The notes under the pieces: model-generated
What the model saw: only the letters and a program-made list of their open reading frames with translations
What the model was told of the DNA's origin: nothing
Database searches by the model: none
From: Flavobacteriales bacterium
GTDB lineage: Bacteria; Bacteroidota; Bacteroidia; Flavobacteriales_F; PHOS-HE28
DNA length: 64,000 bases
Assembly: GCA_016788295.1 (NCBI GenBank)
Contig: JAEUSY010000013.1
Span: 1,862 to 65,861 of the forward strand
Reading direction: 5' to 3'
Position numbers and translations under genes: made by a program
Shown: in pieces, positions 19,425 through 62,691 of the stretch
How the letters are laid out: each line of letters starts with the position of its first letter
Position numbering within the stretch: the stretch's first letter is position 1

Positions 19425-19565
19425 GACGAAGGGTTTTCAACAAAGAAGGCGGCAAATATAGCGTTGTTGGCCTACCCCCAAAGACCGGGACGCAGATGGC
19501 ACCGGACTATCTTTGAAGCATCGTCCGAAAAGGGTGCTGACAGCCCCGAACCAATCCTGCGCAAC

Positions 19566-22877: not shown

Positions 22878-23037
22878 TGCTTTACGCAGGTTGTAAGATT
22901 GTTGTTCGAAGAAAGCGGGCACGAAAGTAAGCGATCCCCAAGGCCCGTACCTGACGATCGTTAACGGCGGGGCCCGGAAGAGAATTCTCGAACTCCGGAG
23001 GCATCCTTTTCAACCGCTTTTCGTCAATTGGACGGAC

Positions 23038-23712
23038 ATGGCTATCTTGACGGCTCCCAAACAACGCCCAGTGGTCTCCGATCCTGCATCCGGCCCTGCT
23101 TCCCCGCGCCTCACCCTTTCTTGGGTGAACACCGATGCGGCAGAACAGGTCTACGCCCCGCTGATCGATGGCTGTACGGCTGGCGACCGGCGTTCACAGC
23201 GCAGGGTGTATGAGCTGTTCTATGGCAAGATGATGGCCGTGTGCATGCGCTACACCAAGAACACCGACCAAGCGAAGGATATCCTCCAGGACGGGTTCAT
23301 CAAGGTGTTCGCCAGCATGGAGAAATTCAATCGTGCGGGCTCCTTCGAGGGCTGGATCCGCCGGATCGTGGTGAACACGGCCATAGACCATTTCCGTCGC
23401 TCCAAGAACGCCTATCTGCTTCTTGGTGAGGAACGTAGCATTGAGGACTTCGGTGACCAGGATGAGGAGGACGTGATCGCTGATGAGGAGGGGGATGAGG
23501 AATGGGAGGTACGACCAGCGGACGTGATCAACGCCATGCAGAAGTTGACACCGGCGTACCGCACCGTGTTCAACCTCTATGTGTTCGAGGAACTTACACA
23601 CCAGGAGATCGCCAATATGCTCGGCATCAACGTGGGTACTTCCAAGAGCAATCTTGCCAAAGCGAAACATAATCTGAAGAAGTTGCTTACAAAGGGGCAA
23701 AAGCTCCGCTAA
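23038..23712 (+). CDS. RNA polymerase sigma-70 factor, ECF subfamily
   Basis: Region 2 (ELFYGKMMAVCMRYTKNTDQAKDILQDGFIKVF) and region 4 (YRTVFNLYVFEELTHQEIANMLGINVGTSKSNL). Confidence 0.85.
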   Translation: MAILTAPKQRPVVSDPASGPASPRLTLSWVNTDAAEQVYAPLIDGCTAGDRRSQRRVYELFYGKMMAVCMRYTKNTDQAKDILQDGFIKVFASMEKFNRAGSFEGWIRRIVVNTAIDHFRRSKNAYLLLGEERSIEDFGDQDEEDVIADEEGDEEWEVRPADVINAMQKLTPAYRTVFNLYVFEELTHQEIANMLGINVGTSKSNLAKAKHNLKKLLTKGQKLR

Positions 23713-23716
23713 CGGC

Positions 23717-24988
23717 ATGACGAACATGAAGGGATACGATCCATTCGAGCACTCCATCCGGGAGTCGTTGGGGTCCTATGAGGTCCCCTATAACTCTGCG
23801 GATTGGACGCAGCTCGAGCGCCGGATGGACCAAGGGGGGGGCACAGGACGGTCACTATCCGCCGGTCTCATCGCGTTGCTCTTCGGTGGCACCTTGGCAG
23901 CTGGCAGTGCACTTTGGCTTATGCTGCAGACCTCACCATCGGTTGAGGCGGACCATTCCGATGAGCCGACACTGGCCGAGGTAGTTGAAAGAGGTGAGGC
24001 TCTCGGCACCTCGGAAGTAACTATGACCGATGGTTCCGAGCAGGACCTTGATGCAGAGCGAACATCCGCAGTGTCGCCAAACGCGGTATCAACAGGTCAT
24101 ACTAGCGCAGGCAGCTTCGCCCAACGGGCAAACGCTGGCGTACAAAGCGAAAACAACGGACAACCCTCGAACACTTCGACCGAGCGCCCAACCCCCCCGG
24201 TCAATAAGGAAGTTGCCATCCGGCCCAGCATTACTTCCGGCTGCCCTGGCACCACAGTGAACTTTGACGCTCAGAACCTTCCCGAAGGCGGCATTTATCT
24301 CTGGAACTTCGGAGATGGATCATTCTCGAATAAGCCATCCCCCAGCCATACGTTCTCTAAATCAGGTGTTTTCGAGGTCATGTTATCCCACTCATCCATG
24401 GGTGGTGGTAACATCTCCAACAAACCAGCTTCCGACCGGATCGTTATACACGAGGTCCCCGAAGCCTCTTTCAACACCCTGAAGCAGGAATACGACAATA
24501 CGGTGCCCTCGGTACATTTTGAGAACCGTAGCGTGGGTGCCAAGAGCTACACGTGGGACTTTGGTGATGGCACCACATCCAGCACACCGCACCCGGACCA
24601 TGTTTACAAACAAAAGGGCGCCTACCATGTGATCCTTACAGTGACCAATGCCAACGGTTGTTCGGACCGCACTGAACGCACTGTACGCATTGATGAGGAT
24701 TATAACCTACTGGCACCCAATACGTTTTCCCCAAACAATGACGGCGTGGAGGACACCTTCATGCCTGAAGCGCTGAAGTCTCTGGGCGTGAAGTTCAACT
24801 TGACCATACATGACCCACGTACTGGGCTGCTCGTTTTCGAATCCACCGATGCCCAGCGCACATGGAATGGACGCATGGGCGGCAAGGGCGAGTTATGTGC
24901 ACCTGGAGAATACGTGTGGATGGTAGAGATGAAGGACGGCGAAAAGCTGGGCGGGACCTACAACGGTAATGTAAGCTTGGTCCGGTGA
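23717..24988 (+). CDS. Anti-sigma-like single-pass membrane protein with extracytoplasmic PKD domain and T9SS type-B (gliding-motility-associated) C-terminal domain
   Basis: Starts 5 bp after the sigma gene. About 45-aa cytoplasmic N-terminus, then a TM helix (LIALLFGGTLAAGSALWLML). PKD motif (YTWDFGDGTTSSTPHPDHVY). C-terminal LAPNTFSPNNDGVEDTF...GEYVWMVEM...VSLVR. Confidence 0.6.
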   Translation: MTNMKGYDPFEHSIRESLGSYEVPYNSADWTQLERRMDQGGGTGRSLSAGLIALLFGGTLAAGSALWLMLQTSPSVEADHSDEPTLAEVVERGEALGTSEVTMTDGSEQDLDAERTSAVSPNAVSTGHTSAGSFAQRANAGVQSENNGQPSNTSTERPTPPVNKEVAIRPSITSGCPGTTVNFDAQNLPEGGIYLWNFGDGSFSNKPSPSHTFSKSGVFEVMLSHSSMGGGNISNKPASDRIVIHEVPEASFNTLKQEYDNTVPSVHFENRSVGAKSYTWDFGDGTTSSTPHPDHVYKQKGAYHVILTVTNANGCSDRTERTVRIDEDYNLLAPNTFSPNNDGVEDTFMPEALKSLGVKFNLTIHDPRTGLLVFESTDAQRTWNGRMGGKGELCAPGEYVWMVEMKDGEKLGGTYNGNVSLVR

Positions 24989-25010
24989 CTGTTGACAAAC
25001 GCACCTCGTT

Positions 25011-25046
25011 AATGAGCCCGGCCCCAGCCGGGCTCATTATTTTTGT
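25011..25046 (+). terminator. Rho-independent terminator
   Basis: AATGAGCCCGGC-ccca-GCCGGGCTCATT followed by ATTTTTG. Confidence 0.65.
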
Positions 25047-25184
25047 CATCAGGCAACCAAAACAGTCGCCGATCCATCATTCTTCCACGCGAGCTTTCCA
25101 GTGGGAGCGTGACTCCTCTCCAGGGTCTTGTTCCTAACTTGACAATTACGCACAGTCCTTCCTTCCAAGCGATCGATCTATCTC

Positions 25185-28100
25185 ATGATCAGCAACTTGC
25201 ACAACTTCATCCGGCTGGCTACCCTGTGCTTGGCATGTGTCTTGAGCACGCCCCAGGTCACCTATGCCCAACAGTTCAGCATAACTGCAGGTAGTATCAC
25301 CACTTGCGCAGGAGTTCTTGAGGATAGTGGTGGTCCTGCGGGGCAATACGGCAACGGGGAAAATTACACGGCCGTGATCTGTCCGGACATCCCCGGAGAT
25401 GGCATCTCCCTGCTCTGGGCCGTGTTCAACCTGAGCAATACCGGCCCCAATCCTGTGGACCGCATACGGATCTGGGATGGCAATTCCACGGCAGAGACTT
25501 TTCTTGGCGAATACACAGGAACGGCATTGCAGGGCTTGATCGTTTCCGCCACCACCTTTAACAGTTCAGGTTGCCTTACTGTACAGTTCATTTCGAATGC
25601 GAACGGGGTTGGCGACTTTGCCGCTGCCATTACGTGCTTCACTCCGTGCGAGCGTCCAGTGGCGGTCGCTACCATGACCGAGGCAAGTCCAGCATTGGTA
25701 TGCATTGGCGAGACCATTGATTTCGATGGCATGGCGTCCTATGCGGCGGCAGGCTTCAATATCGTTTCCTACACATGGGATTTCGATGACGGTACTACGG
25801 ATAACTCTCCGGTCACATCGCACGCTTACTACGAACCAGGTGAATACATTGTCCAGTTGAACCTGATCGATGACAACGATTGTGTGAATGCCAACGTGGT
25901 GGACCTTCAGATCTTGGTGAGCACGACGCCGATATTTGCCGGAACCACGGAAAGTCTGGAAGTCTGTTTGGGGTCGACCGTTGACCTTACCGGGGTCGCC
26001 GTTCCTGTAACGTGGACAGGCATTCCAGAAGCGAACTTTGGGAACGGGGTATACTTGCCCGATGACGTGGGCACACCATTTTCAAGCGAGCTGACCTTTG
26101 CTCAATTCGAACCTGGCCAGACGCTCACGAATGTGAATGACCTGCTTTCCATATGCATCAGCATGGAGCATTCATTCATGGGTGATCTGGTGCTCTCCGT
26201 TACGTGCCCGAGTGGACAGGTCATCATTCTGCACCAGCAAGGCGGAGGAGGAACCTACATAGGTGGCGCCAACGATGGTGATGGGAATACGAATCCTGTT
26301 CCCGGCACGTGCTGGGATTACTGTTGGTCGCCGACCGCCACCTTGGGTACATGGGTGCAAAGTGCAGCCTTCGGCACCTCCCCGAACGTGATGCAGGGAG
26401 GTACTCCGCCCAACAATGCCCTTATTCCCGGCACATACACCTCTCTACAACCTTGGAGCAACTTGGCAGGTTGTCCGCTCAATGGCACATGGACATTCAC
26501 CTCGCTGGATCTTTGGGGCGCGGACAATGGGTTCCTCTGCAACTGGTCGCTCAACTTCAACCCTGGCATCATTCCGGATGTCACACAATTCACTCCGGAC
26601 CTCGGCTTGAGCACGTTGGATTCGACCTATTGGATCGGACCCTACGGAACGCCTGACCCGAACAACCCGACCGAGCTCAGCTTCACGCCGGACCTGCCCG
26701 GTTCGTATAACTACACCTACCTGGTAACGGACAATTTCGGCTGTACTTACGACACTACCATTACCGTGACGGTGGCGGAACAAATGGTGATCGATGCCGG
26801 ACCGGACATTATCCTTTGCAATGACCCGCTACCCATGGCCGGCCAGATCGTGGCCAACGGGCCTCCGACCAACTGCACCTGGGTATTACAACTCCTGGAA
26901 ACGTTCGGGGATTCATGGAACGGAGGGGCAACATTGGCTGTCATCATTGATGGGGCACAAACCAATTATTCCATCTCTACGAACGGCACACTTCAGCAAT
27001 CGATAAACCTTAGTGTTTCCACAGGGTCATCGATCATTCTACAGTACACAGCAGGAACGATCTTCAATGGCGAGAACTCCTTCCGTCTGTATGACGACCT
27101 TGGTAACATTGTCTATCAATCGCCTCAAGGTCCTCCCACAGGTGTGGCTTGGTCCGGTACGATCTCTTGTGACGGTGGCACCTCACCAACTGTATGGGAA
27201 TGGTCGCCGACCGGAGGCCTCGACGATCCTTCCGATCCGTTGACCAATGTTTTCACGACCCAATCCACATGGTACGTTCTCACAGCCTATCCTGCTGGCA
27301 ATCCGCAGTGTGCCGTTGTGGACAGCGTGAACGTTAGCCCCGACCCATCGATCAACGCCGGACAGAGCAATGCACTGATCATCTGCGCCAGCGAACCCGT
27401 TTTCCTGATGACCGACTCTCTATTAGGCACACCCGATCTGGGTGGCGTATGGACGGATGCGGCCGGCAACGTTATGCCCGACACGTTCGATCCGGACAAT
27501 GGCGTTACCGGGGTATACACCTACACTGTAACGAGCGCTGCGGGCTGCCAAGCCACCTCGACCTTGGACATTACAGTGATACCCGCCGACGACCCGACCT
27601 GTTGCGGTGTAGTGGATGCTGGTCTGCCTGCCTTCTCCTGCAACCTATCCATCGCACTAAGCGCTACTCCCGGCAATACAGGTGTCGGAAACTGGGTTGG
27701 ACCTGTTGGGGCCATTTTCGCTGATGCCTTCGCCACACAGACCACGGTAAGTGTGCAGCCTGGCATGGGCGGTTCGCACTGGTTCTATTGGGTCGAGGAC
27801 GATGGAGCGTTCTGCTACCTGATCGACAGCGTGCAGATGACCTTCACCGACACGATCATCATTTCCTTCACCCACACGGACGCCATCTGCTTCACTTACT
27901 GTGATGGCACAGCGCAATCCACCATTACCGGAGGGAATGCAGCCGCGGGGTTCAATTATACCTGGAGCAACGGCTCGAACGGAGTTAACGTGGATGCCGT
28001 GACCGGCCTATGCGCGGGCACCTACACACTGACCGTGACAGACGACAATGGATGCACTGGTTCCAATACCGTTGTGATCAACGAACCGATCCTACTGGAG

Positions 28101-28865
28101 ATCGATTCGCTTGCCACACAACCGGTCACGTGCTCAGGTGATTGCGACGGTCAAGTGGAGGTCTATGATCCAGAGGCGGTCTGGTACAGCTACGACGACG
28201 GTGCCACATGGACGAATTCCTCGGTGCTTGTTGATGCTTGCGAAGGCATTTACCCGATCCGCATCCGGAATGCCGCTGATTGCATTGGCACAGGAGCGAT
28301 CGCCGTGACAGGCCCTCCTCCAGTCGTTGCTGCGTTCGAGTGGGCACCCATTCCCGCCGACGTGAACGACCCCACGATCTACTTCAATACCACCTCGACC
28401 GGTTCAGACCATTACTACTGGGATATTGCCGGACTAACAAGCAGTACACTACCGAACCCCTCCTACACCTTCAACAACAAGGAACCGGGTGTTTACAACG
28501 TTTGCTTGACCGCTTTCAACTTCAATGAATGCCCGGATACGATCTGCCACGACATCATTATTGACGATGTGCTTTTCGTGTACATCCCGAACTCCTTTAC
28601 TCCGGACGGCGATGGGCTTAACGAGGTTTGGGGCATGAGCACCAATATCCCCGCGATCACCAATTTTGAGATGTACGTGTTCGACCGTTGGGGACAGGTG
28701 GTGTACAACACGAACAACCCTTACGCGACCGGCTTCTGGAATGGAGCTTACCAAAACAGCGGCTCCGTGCTGAAGAGCGATGTTTACGCTTATCGGATCA
28801 CGTATGAGATAGCGGCGACATTGGTTCGCAAGGAACTCATGGGCCATGTGACACTCTTGAAGTAA
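25185..28865 (+). CDS. Giant secreted adhesin-like protein (paralog 1): CUB-like N-domain, PKD, proprotein-convertase P-domain, FGDGWNGG module, SprB-like Cys repeats, PKD, T9SS type-B CTD
   Basis: Signal peptide. CUB-like CxGxL...ICP...I.DG pattern. P-domain ICISMEHSFMGDLVLSVTCPSGQ. SprB-like repeat CDGTAQSTITGGNAAAGFNYTWSNG. C-terminal FVYIPNSFTPDGDGLNEVW...GHVTLLK. Confidence 0.8.
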   Translation: MISNLHNFIRLATLCLACVLSTPQVTYAQQFSITAGSITTCAGVLEDSGGPAGQYGNGENYTAVICPDIPGDGISLLWAVFNLSNTGPNPVDRIRIWDGNSTAETFLGEYTGTALQGLIVSATTFNSSGCLTVQFISNANGVGDFAAAITCFTPCERPVAVATMTEASPALVCIGETIDFDGMASYAAAGFNIVSYTWDFDDGTTDNSPVTSHAYYEPGEYIVQLNLIDDNDCVNANVVDLQILVSTTPIFAGTTESLEVCLGSTVDLTGVAVPVTWTGIPEANFGNGVYLPDDVGTPFSSELTFAQFEPGQTLTNVNDLLSICISMEHSFMGDLVLSVTCPSGQVIILHQQGGGGTYIGGANDGDGNTNPVPGTCWDYCWSPTATLGTWVQSAAFGTSPNVMQGGTPPNNALIPGTYTSLQPWSNLAGCPLNGTWTFTSLDLWGADNGFLCNWSLNFNPGIIPDVTQFTPDLGLSTLDSTYWIGPYGTPDPNNPTELSFTPDLPGSYNYTYLVTDNFGCTYDTTITVTVAEQMVIDAGPDIILCNDPLPMAGQIVANGPPTNCTWVLQLLETFGDSWNGGATLAVIIDGAQTNYSISTNGTLQQSINLSVSTGSSIILQYTAGTIFNGENSFRLYDDLGNIVYQSPQGPPTGVAWSGTISCDGGTSPTVWEWSPTGGLDDPSDPLTNVFTTQSTWYVLTAYPAGNPQCAVVDSVNVSPDPSINAGQSNALIICASEPVFLMTDSLLGTPDLGGVWTDAAGNVMPDTFDPDNGVTGVYTYTVTSAAGCQATSTLDITVIPADDPTCCGVVDAGLPAFSCNLSIALSATPGNTGVGNWVGPVGAIFADAFATQTTVSVQPGMGGSHWFYWVEDDGAFCYLIDSVQMTFTDTIIISFTHTDAICFTYCDGTAQSTITGGNAAAGFNYTWSNGSNGVNVDAVTGLCAGTYTLTVTDDNGCTGSNTVVINEPILLEIDSLATQPVTCSGDCDGQVEVYDPEAVWYSYDDGATWTNSSVLVDACEGIYPIRIRNAADCIGTGAIAVTGPPPVVAAFEWAPIPADVNDPTIYFNTTSTGSDHYYWDIAGLTSSTLPNPSYTFNNKEPGVYNVCLTAFNFNECPDTICHDIIIDDVLFVYIPNSFTPDGDGLNEVWGMSTNIPAITNFEMYVFDRWGQVVYNTNNPYATGFWNGAYQNSGSVLKSDVYAYRITYEIAATLVRKELMGHVTLLK

Positions 28866-28917: not shown

Positions 28918-29077
28918 GACCGTTTGGGCGTTCAACAGCTGGCCCTTTGATGGCGGAAGGAAAGGTGTACTTGTCCGATCTTTGACAGTGGTCAAATAAG
29001 GATCAGTGCGCACAATGAACAGCCAGGGAACTTTTCACGGCGTTCGTGCGTCATCATCCCGACCGCACCGCTCAACC

Positions 29078-32000
29078 ATGATGCCGACCTCCCATTTCGT
29101 GTATAGGTTCACTCGCTTTGTCTCTTTGATGCTCGCTTTGGCTTGGTTCACACTGGCCCAAGCCCAAGTGATCCACAACATTGCCGATGGTAACCTTAAC
29201 GCATGCGATGGTGCCATTGTGGATAGCGGCGGGGAAGGTGGGCCCGGCTACGGCAACAACGAGAGCCATACTGCCACGATTTGCCCGGGCACACCCGGCG
29301 AAGGGGTCAGCCTCAACTTCATCATGTTCAACCTGAGCACTGCCGGGCCAGCACCATTGGACCAGCTCACGGTCTTCGATGGCGACAACACTGGAGCACC
29401 GGTGATCGGCACCTACACAGGCACTGAACTACAGGGACAGATCGTCTTTGCATCAGCGACCAACCCAACAGGTTGCCTCACTTTGTTCTTCACTTCCAAC
29501 GACAACGGAACGGGTACGTTCGCGGCTTCCATCACGTGCTACACACCATGTATTCCGCCTGATGCGGTGGCACAAATGAGCGAGCCTGCACCCGCCTTGG
29601 TCTGCGTAGGTGAGGACGTTACGTTCGACTGTAGTGCATCAACCGCGGCTGCAGGCTTCAACATCGTTAGCCGGGTCTGGGACTTCAATGATGGCACAAC
29701 AGATGAGGGCGCCGTGGTGCAACACAACTTCTCAGAACCGGGCGACTACCTGGTACAGTTGACGTTGACGGATGATAACGGCTGCACAAATACCAACCTC
29801 GTGGACCTGCTGGTGCTTGTTGGCACCACGCCGCTGTTCAACGGCACTACGCCAAGCCTGACCGTTTGTGAAGGAGCCACGGTAGACCTAACGGGTATTG
29901 TGACACCGGTGATGTGGACAGGCATTCCCGAGATCGATTTCGGTGACGGGGTATATCTCCCGGATAATGTGGGAAGCACGTTCACAAGCCAAGTAAGCAA
30001 CACCTATTTCTCTCCTGGAGCAACGCTGACCAACGTGAATGACCTTTTGTCCATTTGTGTGGACATGGAGCATTCGTTCATGGGCGACCTTGTCATCAAT
30101 CTCACCTGCCCCAACGGACAAAGCGTCGTGCTGCACCAACAAGGTGGAGGAGGCACCTTCCTGGGAGGCGCGAACGATGGGGATGACAACAACCCGCAGC
30201 CTGGGACCTGTTGGAACTATTGCTGGGCACCCAATGCGCCCAACGGCACCTGGGTACAATCGGTCGGTGCAGGACTGACCATGCCTTCTGGCACTGGCGG
30301 CAACGCTTTGCAACCAGGCACCTACTCCAGCGTTGGTAGCATGAACAACCTGCTCGGCTGCCCGCTGAACGGTACATGGACCATCGCCTTCACCGACCTC
30401 TGGGGCATAGACAACGGTTTCCTCTGTGCTTGGAACATGGACTTCAGCCCATCGCTCTATCCTGACCTGGTCCAGTTCACTCCCGTGCCCGGTTACAGTA
30501 CCACGGACTCCATGTACTGGTCCGGCCCGAACGTGGTGATCAACCCGGCCGACCCGCTTACAGGCTCGGTGACAGTGAACGATCCCGGCGTGTTCAACTA
30601 CACGTTCAACGTAACGGACAATTTCGGGTGTGTGTACGACACCACGATCACGATCACAGTGACGAATGCTCCGGTCGTAGAGGCCACCATGACCTTGGGT
30701 GCGGGCTGTAGTGATCCCGCCCAATTGGACGCGACCATCGTGGCATTCCCCCCTCCCCCGCCGCCATGCAACTACACGCTCACACTTTACGACTCGTTCG
30801 GTGATGGATGGAACGGGGGTGCGAACGTGCAGGTAGTGATCAACGGTGTGGCAACGACCTACTCGCTTCCACCCGGCGGGAACTCAGCATCGTATCCCAT
30901 TAGTGTGCAGACCGGAGCTACTATCTCGCTCGTATTCACGGCCGGGAACATTTGGAACAACGAGAACTCGCTGGCCCTTTTCAGCTATTCCGGAGCCACA
31001 TTGTACACGTCACCGGCCGGCCCTCCCACATCCACGCTTTGGACAGGAACCGGCAACTGCGGCCCGAACAGTGGACCCGTGGTGTATGCATGGACCCCGG
31101 CCGCTGGCGTTGTCTCCCCAACAAGCGCAAGTACCCTCACACAGATCACTCAGCCCACGGAATTCGTGGTGACCATACACCCACCTGGCCAGCCGTGGTG
31201 CAACACCACGGATACCGTTCTAGTGGCGCCTCCCTCATTCCTTGAAAGCGACAGTATCGTTACGCATGTGCTCTGCAACGGCGGGGACGGTTCGATCGAG
31301 ATCATCAATACTGGCCTTGGCGGCCCATGGAACTACCTCTGGACGAACGACCAGGGCGCAACTGTAAGTCAGGTGAACGGCGCTTTCGGGAATACACTTA
31401 CTGCTCCTGCTGGAACGTATACGGTGATCGTGACAGAAGGCGGGCCTGCGGCTAATGGATGTGCGGATACCCTAACGACCTCCATAACGGAACCAGAACT
31501 GCTGTTGTGGGACGTGCTGCCAGTTGATACCACGATCTGCCTCACCGGCATTGCCCAACTTGCTGCCACCACCACCGGCGGTACTGGCAACATCACCATA
31601 GTGTGGACTCCGGGCCTCGTGGGTAGCGGCCCCCACAACGTCAGCCCCGCGAACACCACAACGTACGCCCTGCAGGCCACTGACGCCAACGGTTGTGTCA
31701 TCGGTGGTGAGCAGGTCACCGTGACCGTGCTTCCTGCATTATCATACCTCCCGCTACAACCCGATGCGGAGTGCTTCGGTATTCCGGTGGATTACTTCGC
31801 GGTTGGTGTAAGCGGCGGTGATGGCGCCTACCAGTACGATTGGGGGCAGGGCCCACAACCGAGCCCCACAGCAACTTTCACATTGCCAGTTACCGGTACT
31901 GTTTGCATGACCTTGAGCGACGGCTGCGAAACACCACCGTTGACCACCTGTGCAACACTGGAGATATTGCAGACACCGCCCTTAGAACTGGTGGCCGACA

Positions 32001-32770
32001 CGGTGTTCGGATGCGCACCTTTTACGGTGGGCTTTGCACTAACGGACACAACAGGTGGAGCACAAGTGCGATGGTCATTCGGTCATGGACCTTCCGTGCA
32101 AGCACCACCGAACACCATACACGTGTATAATGTGGCCGGCAACTATACAGTGGGGGTTGAGGTGACCTGGCCGAACGGCTGCATTACGGACACGAGCATC
32201 GCACAAATGATCCGGGTGATCTCCGTGCCTATCGCGAGCATGACCTACAGCCCACGCCCGCCCACAGTGAATAATTCAGAGGTGCAGTTCCAGGATACGT
32301 CCATACCCAATGCGGTCTCATGGTTCTGGGATTTTGATGAGCTGGGTACCAGCACAGAGCAGGATCCCGTGGTGGAATTCCCCAACGAAACGAGTGGTGT
32401 TTACCCCGTGCTTTTCGCGGTTGCCAATGAACTGGGATGCTCCGACACGTTGCGCACTTTGGTCGAGGTGCAGGACGAGTTCCTTGTTTGGGTGCCGAAC
32501 ACCTTTACACCGAACGATGACGCACATAACCAGACCTTCTTCATCAGCGGGAATGACATCGCCACAGACGAGTTCGAACTGATCATCTTCGACCGCTGGG
32601 GACATGAGGTGTTCAACACTACCGATCCATACCTGGCATGGAACGGCACCCACATGAACAAAGGAGGAGAGATACTTCCCACCGGCATCTATAATTGGCG
32701 CTTGAGCGTACGATCACAGTCCACACAAAAGGAAAAGATCATCTACGGTCATGTGAACCTGCTGAAGTGA
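29078..32770 (+). CDS. Giant secreted adhesin-like protein (paralog 2), same architecture as 25185..28865
   Basis: Signal peptide MMPTSHFVYRFTRFVSLMLALAWFTLAQA. The CUB-like domain, P-domain (ICVDMEHSFMGDLVINLTCPNGQ), FGDGWNGGANVQVVINGV module and type-B CTD (LVWVPNTFTPNDDAHNQTF...GHVNLLK) are collinear with paralog 1. Confidence 0.8.
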   Translation: MMPTSHFVYRFTRFVSLMLALAWFTLAQAQVIHNIADGNLNACDGAIVDSGGEGGPGYGNNESHTATICPGTPGEGVSLNFIMFNLSTAGPAPLDQLTVFDGDNTGAPVIGTYTGTELQGQIVFASATNPTGCLTLFFTSNDNGTGTFAASITCYTPCIPPDAVAQMSEPAPALVCVGEDVTFDCSASTAAAGFNIVSRVWDFNDGTTDEGAVVQHNFSEPGDYLVQLTLTDDNGCTNTNLVDLLVLVGTTPLFNGTTPSLTVCEGATVDLTGIVTPVMWTGIPEIDFGDGVYLPDNVGSTFTSQVSNTYFSPGATLTNVNDLLSICVDMEHSFMGDLVINLTCPNGQSVVLHQQGGGGTFLGGANDGDDNNPQPGTCWNYCWAPNAPNGTWVQSVGAGLTMPSGTGGNALQPGTYSSVGSMNNLLGCPLNGTWTIAFTDLWGIDNGFLCAWNMDFSPSLYPDLVQFTPVPGYSTTDSMYWSGPNVVINPADPLTGSVTVNDPGVFNYTFNVTDNFGCVYDTTITITVTNAPVVEATMTLGAGCSDPAQLDATIVAFPPPPPPCNYTLTLYDSFGDGWNGGANVQVVINGVATTYSLPPGGNSASYPISVQTGATISLVFTAGNIWNNENSLALFSYSGATLYTSPAGPPTSTLWTGTGNCGPNSGPVVYAWTPAAGVVSPTSASTLTQITQPTEFVVTIHPPGQPWCNTTDTVLVAPPSFLESDSIVTHVLCNGGDGSIEIINTGLGGPWNYLWTNDQGATVSQVNGAFGNTLTAPAGTYTVIVTEGGPAANGCADTLTTSITEPELLLWDVLPVDTTICLTGIAQLAATTTGGTGNITIVWTPGLVGSGPHNVSPANTTTYALQATDANGCVIGGEQVTVTVLPALSYLPLQPDAECFGIPVDYFAVGVSGGDGAYQYDWGQGPQPSPTATFTLPVTGTVCMTLSDGCETPPLTTCATLEILQTPPLELVADTVFGCAPFTVGFALTDTTGGAQVRWSFGHGPSVQAPPNTIHVYNVAGNYTVGVEVTWPNGCITDTSIAQMIRVISVPIASMTYSPRPPTVNNSEVQFQDTSIPNAVSWFWDFDELGTSTEQDPVVEFPNETSGVYPVLFAVANELGCSDTLRTLVEVQDEFLVWVPNTFTPNDDAHNQTFFISGNDIATDEFELIIFDRWGHEVFNTTDPYLAWNGTHMNKGGEILPTGIYNWRLSVRSQSTQKEKIIYGHVNLLK

Positions 32771-32830: not shown

Positions 32831-33032
32831 TCCATTGGCTTGTTCGTGGGTGATAATCAGACGTTCGTCCAAAACACGACCGCAAAGGCGCCTAATATCC
32901 GCAAGGCTGCTATTTTCATCGCTGAACCACCCGAACGATCGTCCTTAAGGGGGTCGTCGAGAACCAACACGCAGCATGCCCCTGCGCTGGACAATATTCT
33001 TGGAACGGATATCAAGCTTGGGCTTGACCCGC

Positions 33033-36000
33033 ATGGTGGTGGCCATGCTGATCGTGCTGCTTACATCGGGCGTTGTTAACGGCCAGGCCTATTCCATTTT
33101 CAACGGGACCACCAACGCATGTACAGGGGCATTCCTTGATAGTGGCGGACAAGGAGCGAGCGGCTACGGAAACAACGAGAACTACACCTACACCATTTGT
33201 CCCGATGTTCCCGGTGGTGCCATTTCGCTGAGCTTCCTCACATTCAACCTGAGCACTGCCGGAGCCGCGCCGATCGACTTCATGACGATCTATGATGGCA
33301 ACACCACGGCAGCACCACAGTTGGTCAATTGGACAGGCACGACAGGCCAGGGACAGGTCGTGAGCGCAAGCGGGGGCAATCCAACGGGTTGCCTCACCAT
33401 TGTGTTCCGAAGCAACAACACTGGTACAGGCGTCTTTGCAGCCACTATTACCTGTTACCAGCCCTGCAGCCGCCCCACGGCAGCAGCCACCCATGGCGCC
33501 ACCAACCCGCAACGCATCTGTCCGGGAGAAAGCGTCACGTTCAACAGTTCGGCGAGCACTGCGGCAGCGGGAAATAGCATCGCCAACCGACGTTGGGACT
33601 TCGGTGATGGCACTATCCTGAACAACGCGCCGGCCAATGTGAGCCATACCTATGCGCAGCCCGGAGGCTACATGGCGCAACTGACCGTGTTCGACAACAA
33701 CGGTTGCGCGAGCACCAACCAAGTTGACCTGCTTGTGCTCGTTGGCACGCAACCCACTTTCAACGGGACCGGCGGCACGCTGACCGGCTGCGTTGGTGAA
33801 ACATTGTGTTTGAACGGCGCAGTGCAAGGAACCTCTTGGACCGAGTCACCCAACCCCAACCTCGGCAGTGGTGTATTCCTGCCGGACATCGTGGGCGAGT
33901 GCTTCGAGAGCACCATCACCTACGATCAATTCCCTCCTGGGGCCACACTTACCAATGTTAATGGGCTGCTCTCCATTTGCATGGACATGGAGCACTCGTT
34001 CATGGGCGACCTCATCATCAACATCATCAGCCCTACCGGACAGACCGTTACCATGCACCAACAAGGCGGCGGCGGAACTTTCCTGGGAGTACCCGTTGAC
34101 AATGACCTGACGCCGAACGCGCAAGGCACTTGTTGGAACTATTGCTGGAGCCCAACGGCAACGAACGGCACATGGGCTGACAACGCCACTGGCACACTAC
34201 CGGCAGGAACGTATGAGAGCCTCAACCCGCTTTCCGGACTCGTCGGATCACAGCTTAATGGCACTTGGACCATACAGGTGTGCGACATGTGGGCGTCGGA
34301 CAACGGCTTTATCTGCAACTGGAACATCGACTTCAACCCCTCTTTGTTCGATGACCTGATCGAGTTCACACCGGTGTACGGCGCGCTATGTGACAGCAGC
34401 TACTGGACCGGGCCGAACATCACCGGCCAGACCGCGAACTGCAACCAGGCGTGCGTGACCCCGCCCGCACCAGGGAACTACAACTACGTATACCACGTCA
34501 CCGACAACTTCGGATGCACTTACGACACGACGTTGACGGTGAACATCATTCCTGGCCCGCAAGTGAACGCCGGACCCGATGCAAGCACCTGCAACACGCC
34601 CGTGCAATTGGGCGCAACGATCACGAGTGGCGGCTTCCCCACCACCTGCACCTACACGCTCACGTTGTACGATTCCTTCGGCGATGGATGGACGGGGCTC
34701 TTCGGCGGATCGAACGGATCCAGCGTGACCATCACCGTGAACGGCACGCCTTCATCATGGACACTACCGACCGGATCGCAGGGCAGCACAACGATCACAG
34801 TAGCCACAGGGAGCACCATTCAATTGAGCTACACAGCTGGCAGCTTGTACAATGGTGAACAATCGTTCACGCTGTTCAACAGTACCGGCGGAGTGGTTTA
34901 CGCATCGCCCACTGGCCCTGGTGGAGGCGTGGCCTGGAATGGCGCGGCCAACTGTCCGGGTGGCGGTTTCGTCTACAGCTGGTCGCCTGCTGCGGGGTTG
35001 AACAACCCGAACATCGCTGACCCGACGGCAACGGTCAGCGGGACCACGCAATACTGTGTAACGGTCTACCAGGTCGGTCATCCATCGTGCACGAGCACGG
35101 ATTGCATGACCATTACGGTGGACAACCAGGTGGATCCCGGCACCAATACCAATGTGGCCGCATGCAGCAACGGGGGAGCGATCACACTGTTCGCGCAACT
35201 GGGCGGCACACCAACGGCAGGTGGCACATGGACGGCTCCTGGAGGCGGAGCGCACAGTGGATCCTTTCAACCGGGGGTGGATCCACCAGGTGTGTACACA
35301 TATACCGTTGGTGGTGCAGGTGCCTGTGGCGCGCCGCAAAGCAGTACAGTGAATGTTACTGTGAACCCCTTGCCGAACGCGGGCACTTCATCGAGCATGG
35401 CAGCATGCAGTACCGATGCCACGCAATCGATGTTCGCACTGCTCGGCGGCGGTGCACAAGCAGGTGGCACATGGAACGGACCATCGCCAGTGGTAGGTGG
35501 GAACTACAACCCGGCCACCATGAACCCCGGTGTTTACACCTATACGGTGAACGGAACGGCGCCGTGCCCGAATTCGACGGCCACCGTAACAGTAACGGAG
35601 AACGCTCCACCGAACGCAGGCAACGATGCAAGCATTACGCTTTGCAACACAAGTGCGCCCGTAGTGTTGGTAACCCAACTTGGTGGAAGCCCCAGCGGCA
35701 CTGGAACATGGACCGCCCCTGGTGGTGGCACCGTTAGTGGTGGCCTTGACCCCGCAGTGGACCCATCCGGTGTATACACCTATAACGTGGACGGTACGGC
35801 ACCCTGTCCGAATGATCTGGCCACGCTGACCGTTGCGATAAACCCAGCCCCGAACGCGGGAACTCCCGGAGCGATCACGCTCTGTTCTTCTGATGCACCG
35901 GCCTCGCTCTTCGCACAACTCGGCGGAACACCTGATGTCGGCGGCACGTGGAGCGGGCCTTCACCAGTTGTAGGTGGTATGATCGATCCGGCGACGATGA

Positions 36001-39000
36001 ACGCCGGTGTTTACACCTACACGGTGAACGGCGTTGCGCCTTGTCCGAGCGAGAGCGCGACAGTGACGGTGACGATCAACACACCGCCTGTGCCAGGTAC
36101 GCCCGGCGCCATCACGCTGTGTTCATCGGATGCACCAGCATCGCTGCTCGCACAACTCGGTGGAACGCCTGATGCGGGAGGCACGTGGAGCGGGCCTTCA
36201 CCAGTTATTGGCGGCATGATCGACCCCGCGACGATGAACGCCGGTGTTTACACCTACACGGTGAACGGCGTTGCGCCTTGTCCGAGCGAGACCGCGACTG
36301 TGACGGTGACGATCAACACGCCGCCAGATCCAGGTACGCCCGGCGCGATCACACTGTGTTCTTCGGATGCACCGGCATCGCTCTTCGCACAACTCGGCGG
36401 AACGCCCGATGCAGGAGGTACATGGAGCGGGCCTTCGCCTGTGATCGGTGGCATGATCGATCCGGCGACGATGAACGCCGGTGTTTACACCTACACGGTG
36501 AACGGCGTTGCGCCTTGTCCGAGTGAGAGCGCGACAGTGACGGTGACGATCAACACGCCGCCAGATCCAGGCACACCCGGCGCGATCACGCTGTGTTCTT
36601 CGGATGCACCGGCATCGCTCTTCGCGCAACTCGGCGGAACGCCCGATGCAGGAGGAACATGGAGCGGGCCTTCACTAGTTGTAGGCGGCATGATCGACCC
36701 CGCGACAATGAGTGCGGGCGTGTATACCTACACGGTTGACGGTGTGGCGCCGTGCCCGAGTGAGAGCGCGACAGTGACGGTGACGATCAACACACCGCCA
36801 GATCCAGGCACACCCGGCGCGATCACGCTGTGTTCATCGGATGCACCGGCTTCGCTCTTCGCGCAACTCGGCGGAACGCCCGATGCAGGAGGTACATGGA
36901 GCGGGCCTTCTCCAGTTGTAGGTGGCATGATCGATCCTGCGACGATGGACGCCGGTGTTTACACCTACACGGTGAGCGGCGTTGCGCCTTGTCCGAGCGA
37001 GAGCGCGACAGTGACGGTGACGATCAACACACCGCCAGATCCAGGTACGCCCGGCGCGATCACACTGTGTTCTTCGGATGCACCGGCATCGCTCTTCGCA
37101 CAACTCGGCGGAACACCTGATGTCGGCGGCACGTGGAGCGGGCCTTCACCAGTTGTAGGCGGCATGATCGATCCTGCGACGATGGACGCCGGTGTTTACA
37201 CCTAAACGGTGATCGGCGTTGCGCCTTGTCCGAGCGAGAGCGCGACAGTGACGGTGACGATCAACACGCCGCCAGATCCAGGTACGCCCGGCGCGATCAC
37301 GCTATGTTCTTCGGATGCACCGGCATCGCTCTTCGCACAACTCGGCGGAACACCTGATGTCGGCGGCACGTGGAGCGGGCCTTCACCAGTTGTAGGTGGT
37401 ATGATCGATCCGGCGACGATGAACGCCGGTGTTTACACCTACACGGTGAACGGCGTTGCGCCATGTCCGAGCGAGAGCGCGACAGTGACGGTGACGATCA
37501 ACACACCGCCAGATCCAGGCACACCCGGCGCGATCACACTTTGTTCTTCGGATGCACCGGCATCGCTCTTCGCACAACTCGGCGGAACGCCTGATGCAGG
37601 AGGTACATGGAGCGGGCCTTCACCAGTTTCTGGAGGCATAATCGATCCGGCGACGATGAACGCCGGTGTTTACACCTACACGGTGAACGGCGTTGCGCCT
37701 TGTCCAAGTGAGAGCGCGACAGTGACGGTAACGATCAACACGCCGCCTGTGCCAGGTACACCCAGCGCTATCACGCTATGTTCTTCGGATGCATCGGCAT
37801 CGCTCATTGCACAACTCGGCGGAACGCCTGATGTCGGCGGCACATGGAGCGGGCCTTCACCAGTTGTAGGCGGCATGATCGATCCGGCGACGATGAACGC
37901 CGGTGTTTACACCTACACGGTGAACGGCGTTGCACCGTGTCCGAGTGAGACCGCGACAGTGACGGTGACGATCAACACGCCGCCAGATCCAGGCACACCC
38001 GGCGCGATAACGCTGTGTTCTTCGGATGCACCGGCATCGCTCTTCGCACAACTCGGTGGAACCCCTGATTCGGGTGGTACATGGAGCGGGCCTTCTTCAG
38101 TTGTAGGTGGCATGATCGATCCGGCGACAATGAGCGCGGGGATATACACCTACACGGTGGCTGGACTTGCACCATGCATGAGCGCGTCATCCACCGTCAG
38201 CATCACCATCAACACGCCATCGAACGCGGGCAACAATGGCAGTCTAACACTTTGCACGACCAGTACGGCCACATCGCTCTTCGATCAATTGGGAGGCAGT
38301 CCTCAAGCTGGCGGGACATGGAGCGGACCGAGCACTGTAACCGGCGGCATGATAGACCCGGCGACAATGAACGCGGGCAACTACATCTACATGGTGGCAG
38401 GGACTGCACCATGCCCCGACGTCGCCGCAACAGTGGCGATCGCGATCAATTCAATGCCCAACGCGGGGATCGATGGCGGCCTTACGCTCTGTTCATCGAG
38501 CCCGGCCACAACATTGATCAGCGGCTTGAACGGCACACCGGACAGTGGAGGCAACTGGACAGCACCCGGCGGTGGCGCATCGAACGGCACCTTCACTCCG
38601 GGAGTGAGCGTGACCGGCATCTATACCTACACGGTGAACGGCATAGCTCCGTGCCCTGCCGTTTCCGCGACCGTGGATGTGAACGTGGTAACGAACCCGA
38701 ATGCGGGCCTGCCCGGAAGTGTTACGCTGTGCGCTACTGATGCGGCGACCCTGCTCTTCGCGCAGCTTGGCGGAACGCCCGATGCTGGTGGCGTATGGAG
38801 CGGACCGAGCGCGGTGGTCGGCGGTTTGTACGACCCGGCCACGATGAACCCCGGCGTGTACACCTACACCATCGCTGTTCCTCCGCCGTGCGTGAACGCC
38901 AGCAGCACAGTGACCATCACCGAGATCGCACCGCCCAACGCTGGTACCGACGGCGCGCTCACCATGTGCATCAGCAGTCCGGCAACATCGCTGTTCGCGC

Positions 39001-42000
39001 AGCTTGTTGGTGGTGCACAAGCCGGTGGAACGTGGAGCGGACCTTCTCCTGTCGTAGGAGGAATGTTCAACCCAGCGACGATGACGGCGGGTGTGTACAC
39101 CTACACCGTGAGCGGTACCGCGCCCTGCCCTGCTGATCAAGCGCAAGTGACGGTGAGCGTGGTGGCCGCACCGAACGCTGGTACTCCGGGAAATGCAACG
39201 CTTTGCGCAACTGACAATGTCCTCAACCTCTTCGCGCAGCTTGGCGGAACGCCCGATGCTGGTGGCGCATGGAGCGGACCGAGCGCGGTGGTCGGCGGTT
39301 TGTACGACCCGGCCACGATGAACCCCGGCGTGTACACCTATACCATCACTGTTCCTCCGCCGTGCGTGAACGCCAGCAGTACAGTGACCATCACCGAGAT
39401 CGCACCGCCCAACGCGGGCAACGATGGCGCGCTCACCTTGTGCATCAGCAGTCCGGCAACATCGCTGTTCGCACAGCTTGGTGGTGGTGCACAAGCAGGT
39501 GGAACGTGGAGCGGACCTTCTCCTGTCGTAGGAGGAATGTTCAACCCAGCGACGATGACGGCGGGTGTGTACACCTACACCGTGAGCGGTAACGCGCCCT
39601 GCCCTGCTGATCAAGCGCAAGTGACGGTGAGCGTGGTGGCCGCACCGAACGCTGGTACTCCGGGAAATGCAACGCTTTGCGCCACTGACAATGTCCTCAA
39701 CCTCTTCGCGCAGCTTGGCGGAACGCCCGATGCTGGTGGCGCATGGAGCGGACCAAGTGCAGTGGTCGGCGGTTTGTACGACCCGGCCACGATGAACCCC
39801 GGCGTGTACACCTACACCATCACTGTTCCTCCGCCGTGCGTGAACGCCAGCAGCACAGTGACCATCACCGAGATCGCACCACCCAACGCAGGCACCGACG
39901 GCGCGATCACCTTGTGCATCAGCAGTCCTGCGACCTCGCTGTTCGCGCAGCTTGGTGGTGGTGCACAAGCCGGTGGAACGTGGAGCGGACCTTCTCCTGT
40001 CGTTGGTGGCATGTTCGATCCAGCGAACATGACCGCCGGTGTATACACCTACACAGTGAACGGAACATCGCCCTGCCCCAACGACCAGAGCATCGTGACA
40101 GTGACCGTGGTAAGCGAGCCAGACCCCGGTGGCCCCGGCTTCCTGACGATCTGCGCAACGGATGCGCCCGATGACCTCTTCAGTTACATAGAAGGCACAC
40201 CGGACCAAGGTGGCCAATGGACAACGCCAAGCGGCACAACGACCTCCGGCGTGTTCGATCCGGCTACCATGGCGTCGGGCGTATACACCTACACCATCAA
40301 CGTGCCTCCGCCTTGCGTCAGCGTGAGCAGTACGGTTACCGTGGATGTGATCACTGCACCGAACGCGGGACTGGATGGCGCAGCTATGCTCTGCCTCACT
40401 GGCGCTCCGCTCGATCTCTTCACTACGTTAGGCGGATCACCTGATGCCGGTGGGACCTGGACCACGAGCTCTGGCTTGCCGTTCAGCAGTACGTTCGACC
40501 CCGCGGTGCATTCTCCCGGCGTGTACAACTACACGGTGAACGGCATTGCGCCATGCCCAGCGGATGTTGCGAGCGTGACCATCGCGGTTACCCAACTGCC
40601 GTATGCAGGGAACGACGCGATCCTGAACCTCTGCGTTGTTGGTGATGCGGTCGATCTTTTCGGCGCATTGGGCGACGCGGATATCGGCGGCACTTGGAGC
40701 GGACCCGGTGGTGCTTCAGCAGGTGTGTTCACGCCGGGCAACAGCATTGCTGGTAACTACACCTACACCGTTGCTGGCTCGCCCCCCTGCCCGTCCGCAT
40801 CAGCCACTGTTACGGTGAACGTCTTGAGCAACGCCGACGCAGGAGGCGATGGCGGCACCACCTTGTGCGGAAGTGATGACCCATTGTCGCTCTTCGATCT
40901 GCTGCAAGGAAGCCCCGACGCAGGCGGCACATGGTTCGCTCCCGGCGGCTCCACAATGAACGGCATATTCAACCCGGCCAACAGCGCTCCGGGCGTGTAT
41001 ACCTACATCCTCTACGTACCTGCGCCATGCCAGAACGACACGGCACAAGTGGTCATGAGCGTTGTGGCCCCCGTGAGCGCAGGCACCAACGGAAACGCGA
41101 CCCTGTGCTCCAACGATTCTCCCGTCGCGCTCTTCAACTTGCTGAACGGCGCGCCGGACCTTGGTGGTTCCTGGACCGCACCGAACGGCGGCCCATCGGA
41201 AGGCAGCTTTGATCCAGGTGTTGACATGACCGGTGGCTATGTGTACACCGTCTACGCCATCGCACCTTGCACCGACCAAAGCGCCACCATAGCGCTGGGC
41301 GTGAACCCATTGCCCGATGCAGGCACCAATGGATCTGCCACGCTCTGTCCTGAAGCAGCGCCCATTTCGCTCTTTGCGCTGTTGGGTGGTTCGCCCATGC
41401 CCGGGGGCACATGGACCGGCCCCAACGGACAGCCGAGCAACGGCATCTTCGATCCGGCCAGCAGCCCACAAGGTGCATACACCTACACTGTTACCGGTTT
41501 GGCCCCGTGCCCGAACGCGATCGCCAGTTCAACGGCCACAGTATACCTCATCGCTCCGCCCAATGCAGGCCCCGATGCGGTATCCTGCACACTGGAGTTC
41601 ACGCTGAACGCCACGGGCAACTGGGCCAGCGGCACGTGGAGCGCAGCAGCCGGCATCACCTTCGGCGACAGCAATTCGCCGACGAGCACCGTTACAGCTA
41701 CCAGTGGCGGCGCATACACCTTCACATGGAGCGTGACCAGCAACGATGGCTGCGCGACGCAGGACCAGGTGACCATCACCTTCACCGATGCGATCGTGCC
41801 TGTTGTCGCCACCACCGATGCCATATGCAACAGTGCATGCGACGGTACGGCCAGTGTGCAGGCAACGGGCGGCAACGGCACCTACAGTTATGCTTGGTCC
41901 AACGGGATCGCAGGCAACACGCAAACGGCATCGAGCATCTGCGCGGGATCGTACACAGTGACCGTGCTTGATGTGAACAACTGCTCGGCAGCTGCGCCCT

Positions 42001-62549: not shown

Positions 62550-62691
62550 GGGATCTACTTGCAGGTTGCCCGCAATGTACAGCAAGCGGTAACAGCGCTG
62601 CTGACCAACATCAGCGACATCCTCGCAACCCCGGAACAAAAAAGACCCGACCGAGGTTCGGCCGGGTCTTTCAACTTGATTCTTTAAAGGC

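Follow-up and report, generated by a model that had tools for sequence, protein, structure and literature searches.

A 64,000-nucleotide stretch of DNA from a Flavobacteriales bacterium (contig JAEUSY010000013.1; the whole stretch is referred to here as the window, and all coordinates are positions within it) encodes an extracytoplasmic function (ECF) sigma factor (23038..23712, + strand) together with a 423-residue partner protein (23717..24988, + strand) that is both anchored in the membrane and equipped with a C-terminal sorting domain (CTD) for type IX secretion systems (T9SS), type B. As judged from sequence and gene context, the partner is very probably the cognate anti-sigma factor of this sigma factor. 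The further-reaching reading is that the two proteins form a switch of sigma and anti-sigma factor coupled to the type-B pathway of the T9SS, a secretion checkpoint resembling those built on FlgM and BtrA, and we place the chances of this full reading somewhat below even. Gene pairing, partner topology, CTD identity, promoter motifs and a set of sister architectures come directly out of the computation and are described in turn.

The sigma factor gene and its membrane-anchored partner

Both open reading frames (ORFs) of the original prediction were found where it had placed them, and its description as a close gene pair holds, with the correction that four bases and not five separate the sigma stop codon (TAA, 23710-23712) from the partner start codon (ATG, 23717). 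The sigma product, 224 residues as called, matches Sigma70_r2 (6.8e-16) and Sigma70_r4_2 (4.1e-14) as well as the ECF superfamily model TIGR02937 (102.2 bits against a cutoff of 42.9), and the Pfam/NCBIfam scan returned no match to region 3 or region 1.1; a single-pass regulator is encoded alongside it, and its two-block promoter is of autoregulatory type with a -10 box of the CGT kind, so that every trait of ECF (group 4) sigma-70 factors that could be tested is present, in agreement with the earlier assignment. The protein scores below the cutoff of every NCBIfam equivalog or subfamily model for a named ECF subgroup, for example TIGR02985 (91 against 126) and sigma_PG0214 (80 against 130). 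The pair is located between mdh (minus strand) and a group of giant genes, after which gyrB is found.

A scan of one genome per GTDB species yielded 80 loci. The sigma ortholog lies directly upstream in all 33 loci in which the N-terminal module of the partner was recognised by phmmer, at gaps of -8 to +22 nt, and the same pair occurs in six further divergent loci, giving 39 of 39 testable loci and bearing out the conserved synteny that had been proposed as a check. These loci span two deeply diverged clades with partner identities down to ~27%, and the pairing is not a matter of chance. A conserved single-pass gene in the +1 position beside an ECF sigma gene counts as the usual hallmark, at the genome level, of a cognate anti-sigma factor (a criterion applied in PMC7826278). 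Upstream of the pair, the close clade carries SecDF, an FG-GAP repeat protein gene and mdh, with different genes in the distant clade; downstream, homologs of the giant genes come after the partner in almost all loci of sufficient length, in close and distant clades alike. A large marine Crocinitomicaceae clade shows the same architecture in proteins of 405-455 residues. Every carrier found is an uncultured member of the Flavobacteriales or of another Bacteroidota group, the family being abundant in Flavobacteriales from freshwater, marine and wastewater sources, and close and distant members alike come from metagenome-assembled genomes (MAGs) or metagenomes, with no cultured host among them. 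The partner itself has the same sequence as MBL7981075.1, a protein of a Flavobacteriales MAG whose sole annotation is 'PKD domain-containing protein', and in public annotations family members are never called anti-sigma factors, only 'PKD domain-containing', 'porin family' or 'hypothetical'. As a separate observation, distant-clade loci (L025-L034, L042 and L043) keep CTTAACCAAAAC across the partner stop codon despite divergence elsewhere.

The partner consists, in order, of a conserved cytoplasmic N-terminus of ~45 residues, one transmembrane (TM) helix, a disordered linker of ~100 residues, two PKD domains and the type-B CTD. The N-terminus contains a 33-residue module (residues 8-40; 23738..23836, + strand) for which two short helices are predicted. 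Among 18 full-length homologs of 52-79% identity, residues 8-36 belong to the best conserved of the protein: F10, E11, E22, P24, Y25, N26, S27, D29, W30 and E34 are invariant, as is G58, and position 37 (M37) is variable. The long N-terminus is therefore real, and a mis-called start, with translation from M37 yielding an ordinary Sec signal peptide and hence plain cargo, was ruled out on the same conservation pattern. The TM helix (residues 48-70; 23858..23926, + strand) includes a conserved central Gly-Gly (G57/G58). A single hydrophobic segment is seen throughout 40 orthologs; it begins at about residue 49, has a mean Kyte-Doolittle value of 1.89, and is preceded by on average 2.55 Lys/Arg in 15 residues and followed by only 0.85. 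This single segment and the charge bias before it support an N-in/C-out signal-anchor and not a cargo protein with a cleaved signal peptide. Since the homolog alignment contains no conserved AxA signal-peptidase site near the end of the TM helix, release of the cargo part by signal peptidase was also discarded. The short cytoplasmic N-terminus and single TM helix of the original prediction thus find support from hydropathy, charge statistics and AlphaFold2 modelling, and its topologically odd combination of membrane anchor and CTD stands.

The AlphaFold2 model, built on the 18-sequence alignment, places helices at residues 9-17 and 27-39 (low pLDDT) and the TM helix at 48-70, leaves residues 71-162 disordered (pLDDT ~35), and shows two PKD sandwiches at pLDDT 84-93 ahead of a lower-confidence C-terminal beta domain. 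The linker (residues 71-165; 23927..24211, + strand) is rich in A, T, P, S, V and E and contains no Trp or Cys; in 158 family members its sequence is not conserved and yet its length stays at 102 +/- 9.6 residues, which suggests a tether that spans the periplasm. The single PKD domain of the original prediction turned out to be two (residues ~166-246 and ~250-325; 24212..24691, + strand; PKD_4 1e-28 in two stretches). Foldseek with the model returned generic PKD/Ig tandem matches only, namely fragments of GhpA and the PKD of PrtV, with PKD matches at a TM-score of 0.83.

In case of the C-terminus (residues 330-423; 24704..24985, + strand), the proposed type-B CTD shared with the giants was substantiated: CHU_C (PF13585) matches residues 333-410 with 45.1 bits at a gathering cutoff of 27, whilst TIGR04131 matches to the last residue with 32.1 bits and so narrowly misses its cutoff of 35. 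An alignment of the last 100 residues with the CTDs of the three giant proteins runs from end to end, with the blocks PN.F(S/T)PN.DG, L.I.D..G..VF, WNG, G.Y.W and a terminal G.V.L.[KR] in common, and the extreme C-terminus, where a type-B sorting domain belongs, is among the most conserved parts of the partner family. No solved type-B CTD exists for structural comparison. In place of a cleavable Sec signal peptide the partner has its conserved 45-residue N-region and 23-residue hydrophobic helix, and no PorP/SprF-like shuttle gene is adjacent, either in the window or in the conserved neighbourhood; it should for these reasons not be filed as ordinary cargo.

These data bear on an alternative in which the partner is a conventional ligand-sensing anti-sigma factor: the PKD domains would sense a periplasmic or envelope cue, and the CTD would be a structural relic of descent from cargo without any involvement of the T9SS. 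PKD and Ig-like domains are common as sensor or binding modules, the fold matches are generic, and both the TIGR04131 score below cutoff and the missing shuttle gene are in keeping with such a relic. The retention of every CTD sequence block and of the extreme C-terminus is not, however, and neither is a linker whose length is conserved as for an envelope-spanning tether; the fusion of the same module to PorP/SprF barrels beside a miniature type-B cargo gene, described below, is hard to explain if the type-B pathway plays no role. We consider a conventional sensor unlikely.

The cytoplasmic module and its sister architectures

The similarity to anti-sigma N-domains that had been envisaged for the first ~45 residues was not found: the N-terminal module has no match in Pfam and NCBIfam even at E<=10, anti-sigma domains included, and its profile has no relative among all PDB sequences. 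The PDB matches that were obtained, to de novo designed TIM barrels, were rejected as spurious and reflect a chance fourfold repeated motif. Class I anti-sigma domains (ASD-I/zf-HC2, RseA_N, RskA) are likewise absent, with only ~45 cytoplasmic residues available and no model matched, and a word-indexed profile search with the N-terminal alignment gave short fragments only and was uninformative.

An exhaustive phmmer search with residues 1-75 of the partner against 1.84 billion representatives gave 109 matches, family members included, and revealed the sister architectures. Roughly 60 of the 109 are proteins of 470-810 residues in which the motif is present in two to eight tandem copies ahead of a single TM helix, with a long linker of low complexity leading to an outer-membrane (OM) beta-barrel at the C-terminus. 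In a survey of 78 module-bearing relatives, PF13568 was matched in 35, PKD in 24 (18 of them with CHU_C) and PorP_SprF in 3; TIGR04131 was matched by 18 of the 78, and NCBIfam contributed PorT/SprT matches that were weak (14) and PorP-family matches that were strong (3, at 1e-26). A hidden Markov model of the motif, with a period of 33 residues and the consensus FDQAIREKLENYEVPYNPADWELMEARLD, detected 317 copies in 118 proteins, none of them after the TM helix: copy number runs from one to eight in tandem, always ahead of the membrane. All four sister-type proteins that were looked up (P0286, P0291, P0335 and P0339) directly follow an ECF sigma gene, usually overlapping it, and three of the four sigma factors, when compared, are 42-55% identical to that of the window. 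The module is joined, in each case looked up beside an ECF sigma factor, to one of three ends, namely PKD domains with a type-B CTD, a PorP/SprF barrel, or another OM beta-barrel (14 of these weakly PorT/SprT-like), and what appears in these sequences is one ECF clade with one cytoplasmic module and three OM-directed ends.

Members of the OM-barrel sister family (P0286, P0291, P0293 and others; loci L081-L086) are annotated as 'porin family protein' or 'hypothetical', and the presence of an inner-membrane anchor and an OM barrel in one protein is a topological oddity in its own right. The PorP/SprF-type sisters are P0335, P0339 and P0341. One PorP/SprF locus (L087, GCA_023251075.1, 5424-8540) encodes an ECF sigma factor, then a protein with four to five motif copies, TM helix, linker and PorP/SprF barrel, and then, in an overlapping third gene, a 214-residue lipoprotein with a type-B CTD; upstream of this sigma gene the same promoter motif as in the window is present, as GCAACC-N15-CGTCTTA, and scores 20.6 bits with the position weight matrix (PWM) introduced below.

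Because the CTD and the PorP/SprF barrel are the two partners of the cargo-shuttle interaction, the sister systems would make the module the part that faces sigma and the type-B pathway the thing that is monitored; as far as sequence can tell, they offer independent support for both, and they strengthen the link to the T9SS that the original prediction had drawn. Since CTD ends and PorP/SprF ends both occur, the same module is found fused to either side of this interaction, which points to contact between CTD and shuttle as the event that may be sensed.

From synteny we infer that the N-terminal module binds the sigma factor. The missing homology to any anti-sigma domain and the occurrence of up to eight tandem copies, which is atypical for sigma binding, would also fit a protein that is no anti-sigma factor at all: a sigma-dependent, co-expressed envelope tether or adhesin accessory, for instance one that positions type-B cargo, with repeats that bind a target other than sigma. 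The terminator that marks the 3' end of the sigma-partner operon (see below) agrees with such a role too. Against it stands the recurrence, in three architectures and at all loci examined, of a conserved single-pass protein whose gene takes the +1 position and overlaps that of an autoregulated ECF sigma factor, and we regard this alternative as very improbable.

Promoters, giant cargo genes and the proposed switch

Upstream of the sigma gene an ECF-type promoter was identified, GGAGGCATCCTTTTCAACCGCTTTTCGTCAAT (22997..23028, + strand), with a -35 element AGGCATCC, a 15-nt spacer and a -10 element CGTC. Cross-locus footprinting in the close clade places this two-block motif, AGGCATCC-15 nt-CGTC, ~41 nt ahead of where sigma starts, and at the equivalent place the distant clade has GGCAACC-N14/15-CGTCTAA; the joint pattern GGCA[A/T]CC-N14/15-CGTC precedes sigma in 27 of 40 loci by regular expression and in essentially all loci by PWM, with 29.9 bits for the site in the window. 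In F. psychrophilum, T9SS genes are transcribed from ECF-type promoters with a CGT -10 element (PMC9723704). In the window, a mere ~12 nt separate the -10 box from the called sigma ATG, and the first 29 sigma residues (MAILTAP…RLTLSWVN; 23038-23124) show a nearly flat codon-position variability of 0.46/0.42/0.55, in contrast to 0.14/0.07/0.38 for the core of the protein. These two features could mean that the mRNA has no leader, or that translation in fact begins with the GTG at 23125.

Following the partner gene is a hairpin with a T-run that resembles an intrinsic terminator (25010..25045, + strand; 13-bp stem with 8 GC pairs, tail TATTTTTG). Other loci likewise have a hairpin at this position, each with its own stem sequence, and sigma and partner hence form an apparent two-gene operon. 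Directly behind the terminator, in intergenic DNA that cannot otherwise be aligned, a block AGGCAACC-N16-(G)CATCAT is kept; in the window it corresponds to an ECF-type promoter-like site before the first giant gene, TCAGGCAACCAAAACAGTCGCCGATCCATCATT (25049..25081, + strand), which scores 9.7 bits, and the orthologous positions reach 13-17.6 bits. A second such site, CCAGGGAACTTTTCACGGCGTTCGTGCGTCATC (29023..29055, + strand; 15.8 bits), belongs to the second giant gene, with 16.3 and 15.8 bits at the orthologous positions of loci L002 and L003, respectively. These sites before giant genes emerged only through cross-locus footprinting and the PWM: an exact search for GGCATCC-N-CGTC found the sigma site alone, and a scan allowing two mismatches was at chance level.

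The PWM was trained only on sigma-upstream sites of other loci and scanned over 2.4 Mb. At 14.5 bits or more, 9 of 17 non-sigma matches, the site at 29023-29055 among them, fall into giant-upstream zones, which make up 0.62% of the DNA (binomial P ~3e-16, for loci that are related to one another). Several of the other matches precede giant CTD proteins in loci without the sigma pair (L046 and L070), and none precedes the FG-GAP gene of the window. A conserved secreted protein of ~139 residues encoded after the giants in two distant-clade loci (L029 12186-12605, L033 16765-17181) has an ECF-type site of 16-19 bits and may be another regulon member. The coupling of sigma to adjacent cargo that had been suggested is strengthened computationally in so far as ECF-type sites like that of sigma precede the first and second giant genes and giant homologs elsewhere, with a housekeeping-type promoter taking this place at the first giant gene in part of the distant clade; on the strength of the motif we think it probable that the sigma factor drives the neighbouring giants.

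The presence of three downstream giants with type-B CTDs was confirmed with one qualification. The first (25185..28865, + strand) encodes 1226 residues with a signal peptide, PKD, P-domain and type-B CTD by Pfam/NCBIfam, and its homologs follow the partner in most loci. The second, also with a type-B CTD, was called from a GTG at 29006; since the promoter-like site at 29023-29055 would then lie inside the ORF, and since translation from Met 29078 (M25) yields a normal signal peptide (MMPTSHFVYRFTRFVSLMLALAWFTLAQA, followed by QV), Met 29078 is the likelier start (29078..32770, + strand). The third giant (32976..42788, + strand) spans ~3270 codons in one frame and is split by a single in-frame TAA (37203-37205; junction …DAGVYT*TVIGVAPC…) into a first half without a CTD (32976-37205) and a second half that carries it (37209-42788); this stop codon could mean that the gene is a pseudogene or is read through in a programmed manner, or it could be a sequencing error. 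For the PKD-PKD region of the partner, the best-matching structures come from fragments of GhpA, the giant 'grappling hook' protein that Aureispira secretes by its T9SS (9flw and others); this hints that the neighbouring giants might be filamentous surface structures of the general kind of GhpA.

Taken as a switch wired to type-B secretion, the system might operate as follows. The partner would be inserted N-in/C-out in the inner membrane, where its 33-residue two-helix cytoplasmic module would hold the sigma factor, and the disordered linker of ~100 residues would let the PKD-PKD-CTD part reach the T9SS in the outer membrane. The type-B route, consisting of the SprA translocon and a PorP/SprF-type shuttle, would engage, pull or export the CTD module, upon which the tether would be cleaved or extracted and sigma released; both the engagement and the release step we infer. 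Free sigma would then transcribe its own operon, replenishing the anti-sigma factor, together with the neighbouring giant type-B-CTD genes. Ongoing secretion would keep consuming the inhibitor, and in a stalled system the inhibitor would build up and expression would be turned off: as export of the CTD module would release sigma, expression of large cargo would be licensed by a working secretion route. Cargo-shuttle interaction in type-B secretion has been described in F. johnsoniae, and orphan type-B cargo is known (PMC12618676).

The opposite sign is conceivable as well. In a secretion-failure sensor, export or docking of the CTD module by the T9SS would ordinarily keep it stable, and a blocked type-B route would cause it to pile up in the periplasm and be degraded, with intramembrane proteolysis then releasing sigma. 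RseA/DegS senses unassembled OM proteins, and the OM-beta-barrel sister architecture fits a 'self-reporting' assembly sensor with this logic; site-2 protease substrates carry helix-destabilising features of the Gly-Gly kind, and a conserved Gly-Gly is present in the TM helix. The predicted regulon, however, comprises more type-B cargo, the induction of which upon export failure would be counter-productive, and no chaperone or protease gene with the promoter motif was found in the DNA examined. We therefore judge a failure sensor improbable.

Several points weigh against the switch reading, beginning with those already given: the module that matches no Pfam, NCBIfam or PDB entry and whose tandem repetition is unusual for an anti-sigma domain, the TIGR04131 score under cutoff, the missing shuttle gene and the relatedness of the loci behind the promoter statistics. 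The site before the first giant is weak in the window, with a -10 of CATC in place of CGTC, and the terminator tail reads TAnTTTTG (25038-25045, consistent at the orthologous positions of L002-L014), which fits the Bacteroidetes sigma-A -7 consensus TAnnTTTG (PMC9723704) and may double as a housekeeping promoter element for this gene; the only promoter of the first giant in several loci of the distant clade is of sigma-A type. All described T9SS effectors carry a cleavable signal peptide (PMC12618676), and, unless it were cut, cargo that stays tethered to the inner membrane would block the translocon. Finally, the direction of signalling is a guess drawn from regulon logic.

Elsewhere in the window, a PorE-like protein of the T9SS/OmpA family is encoded at 10503-12512 (- strand; NF052230, 518.7 bits, cutoff 600). 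Two genes encode cargo with type-A CTDs: the FG-GAP repeat protein (19513-21858, + strand), which in the close clade shares its synteny upstream of sigma with SecDF and mdh, and an 843-residue protein (60555-63086, - strand) whose type-A CTD is its sole match in the NCBIfam scan. Given the PorE-like gene and the type-A cargo, the organism has a T9SS. A 1039-residue TPR protein (47881-51000, - strand) shows weak similarity to PorW/SprE (78.6 bits, cutoff 250).

Comparison with known systems

Outside the PorXY-SigP system of P. gingivalis, little is known of how Bacteroidota adjust the production of very large T9SS cargo (1200-3300 residues, such as gliding adhesins and surface filaments) to secretion capacity. 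One polypeptide that joins a sigma-holding part to a T9SS sorting signal would, if the switch reading is true, provide a direct mechanism for coupling cargo to capacity and a novel kind of anti-sigma domain, and it raises the question of what becomes of a T9SS that meets cargo still tethered to the inner membrane. The step that the module fusions single out, contact between CTD and shuttle, is the one that research on type-B secretion is now trying to define.

The original prediction had drawn a loose analogy to FecR. Like FecR, the partner would regulate an ECF sigma factor from the inner membrane, which it crosses once, and would receive a signal from the outer membrane. The analogy does not hold beyond this: neither FecR (PF04773) nor DUF4974 nor a TonB-dependent transducer was matched in the partner or its neighbours, and contact with the outer membrane would be made by the CTD of the partner itself. 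FlgM, BtrA and PorA-PorXY-SigP are closer. Ordinary type-B cargo such as SprB-like adhesins shares with the partner the blocks of the CTD, the PKD/Ig domains before it and a neighbourhood of giant type-B cargo; the partner differs in its uncleaved signal-anchor, its small size, its constant pairing with an ECF sigma factor and its lack of an adjacent shuttle gene.

Amongst anti-sigma factors, class I domains form a bundle of ~80-90 residues with three helices plus a fourth, against only ~45 cytoplasmic residues in the partner. Class II factors (CnrY, NepR) act as a two-helix clamp around sigma-2 and sigma-4 (PMC6101532). With a very short cytoplasmic part, two helices predicted in it (low pLDDT) and a single TM helix behind, the partner has a layout like that of CnrY; the likeness is one of gross shape only, since no sequence similarity is detectable and a 33-residue unit repeated up to eight times is not known for class II.

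In Porphyromonas gingivalis the CTD protein PorA signals to the ECF sigma factor SigP via PorXY (PMC7712824; see also PMC12152298), so that there, too, a T9SS CTD protein informs an ECF sigma factor controlling T9SS-related genes. PorA is, however, a separate secreted protein with a normal signal peptide that acts through the two-component system PorY/PorX, and SigP has no anti-sigma factor of this kind, whereas in the window the CTD and the putative sigma-holding part are united in one polypeptide.

The proposed logic is that of FlgM/sigma-28 and of BtrA (BspR)/BtrS, in which a sigma inhibitor carries an export signal and the activity of the machine turns on the genes for its substrates; BtrA is an anti-ECF-sigma factor exported by the type III secretion system of Bordetella, and BtrS is the ECF sigma factor (PMC7498569). 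Both FlgM and BtrA are soluble in the cytoplasm, leave it in one step by type III secretion and have no sequence relationship to the partner, which is anchored in the inner membrane: as only its periplasmic part can meet the OM T9SS, a step of cleavage or extraction would be needed, and the checkpoint logic would, unlike that of FlgM and BtrA, be adapted to the two-step pathway of Sec followed by T9SS. Secretion-coupled control by sigma and anti-sigma factors is thus already known; what appears to be undescribed is the anti-sigma-like module, and full-text searches on anti-sigma factors together with T9SS, type-B CTD, PorP/SprF or beta-barrel turned up no account of such proteins. It is a tentative and still doubtful proposal that these proteins represent an unrecognised Bacteroidota class of envelope-spanning anti-sigma factors, in which a 33-residue sigma-binding repeat, a TM helix, a tether of periplasm length and an OM-directed end (a type-B CTD, a PorP/SprF shuttle barrel or a PorT-like barrel) would couple the type-B cargo-shuttle step to an ECF sigma factor, and which would provide the first FlgM-like checkpoint for the T9SS, in control of giant adhesin-like cargo.

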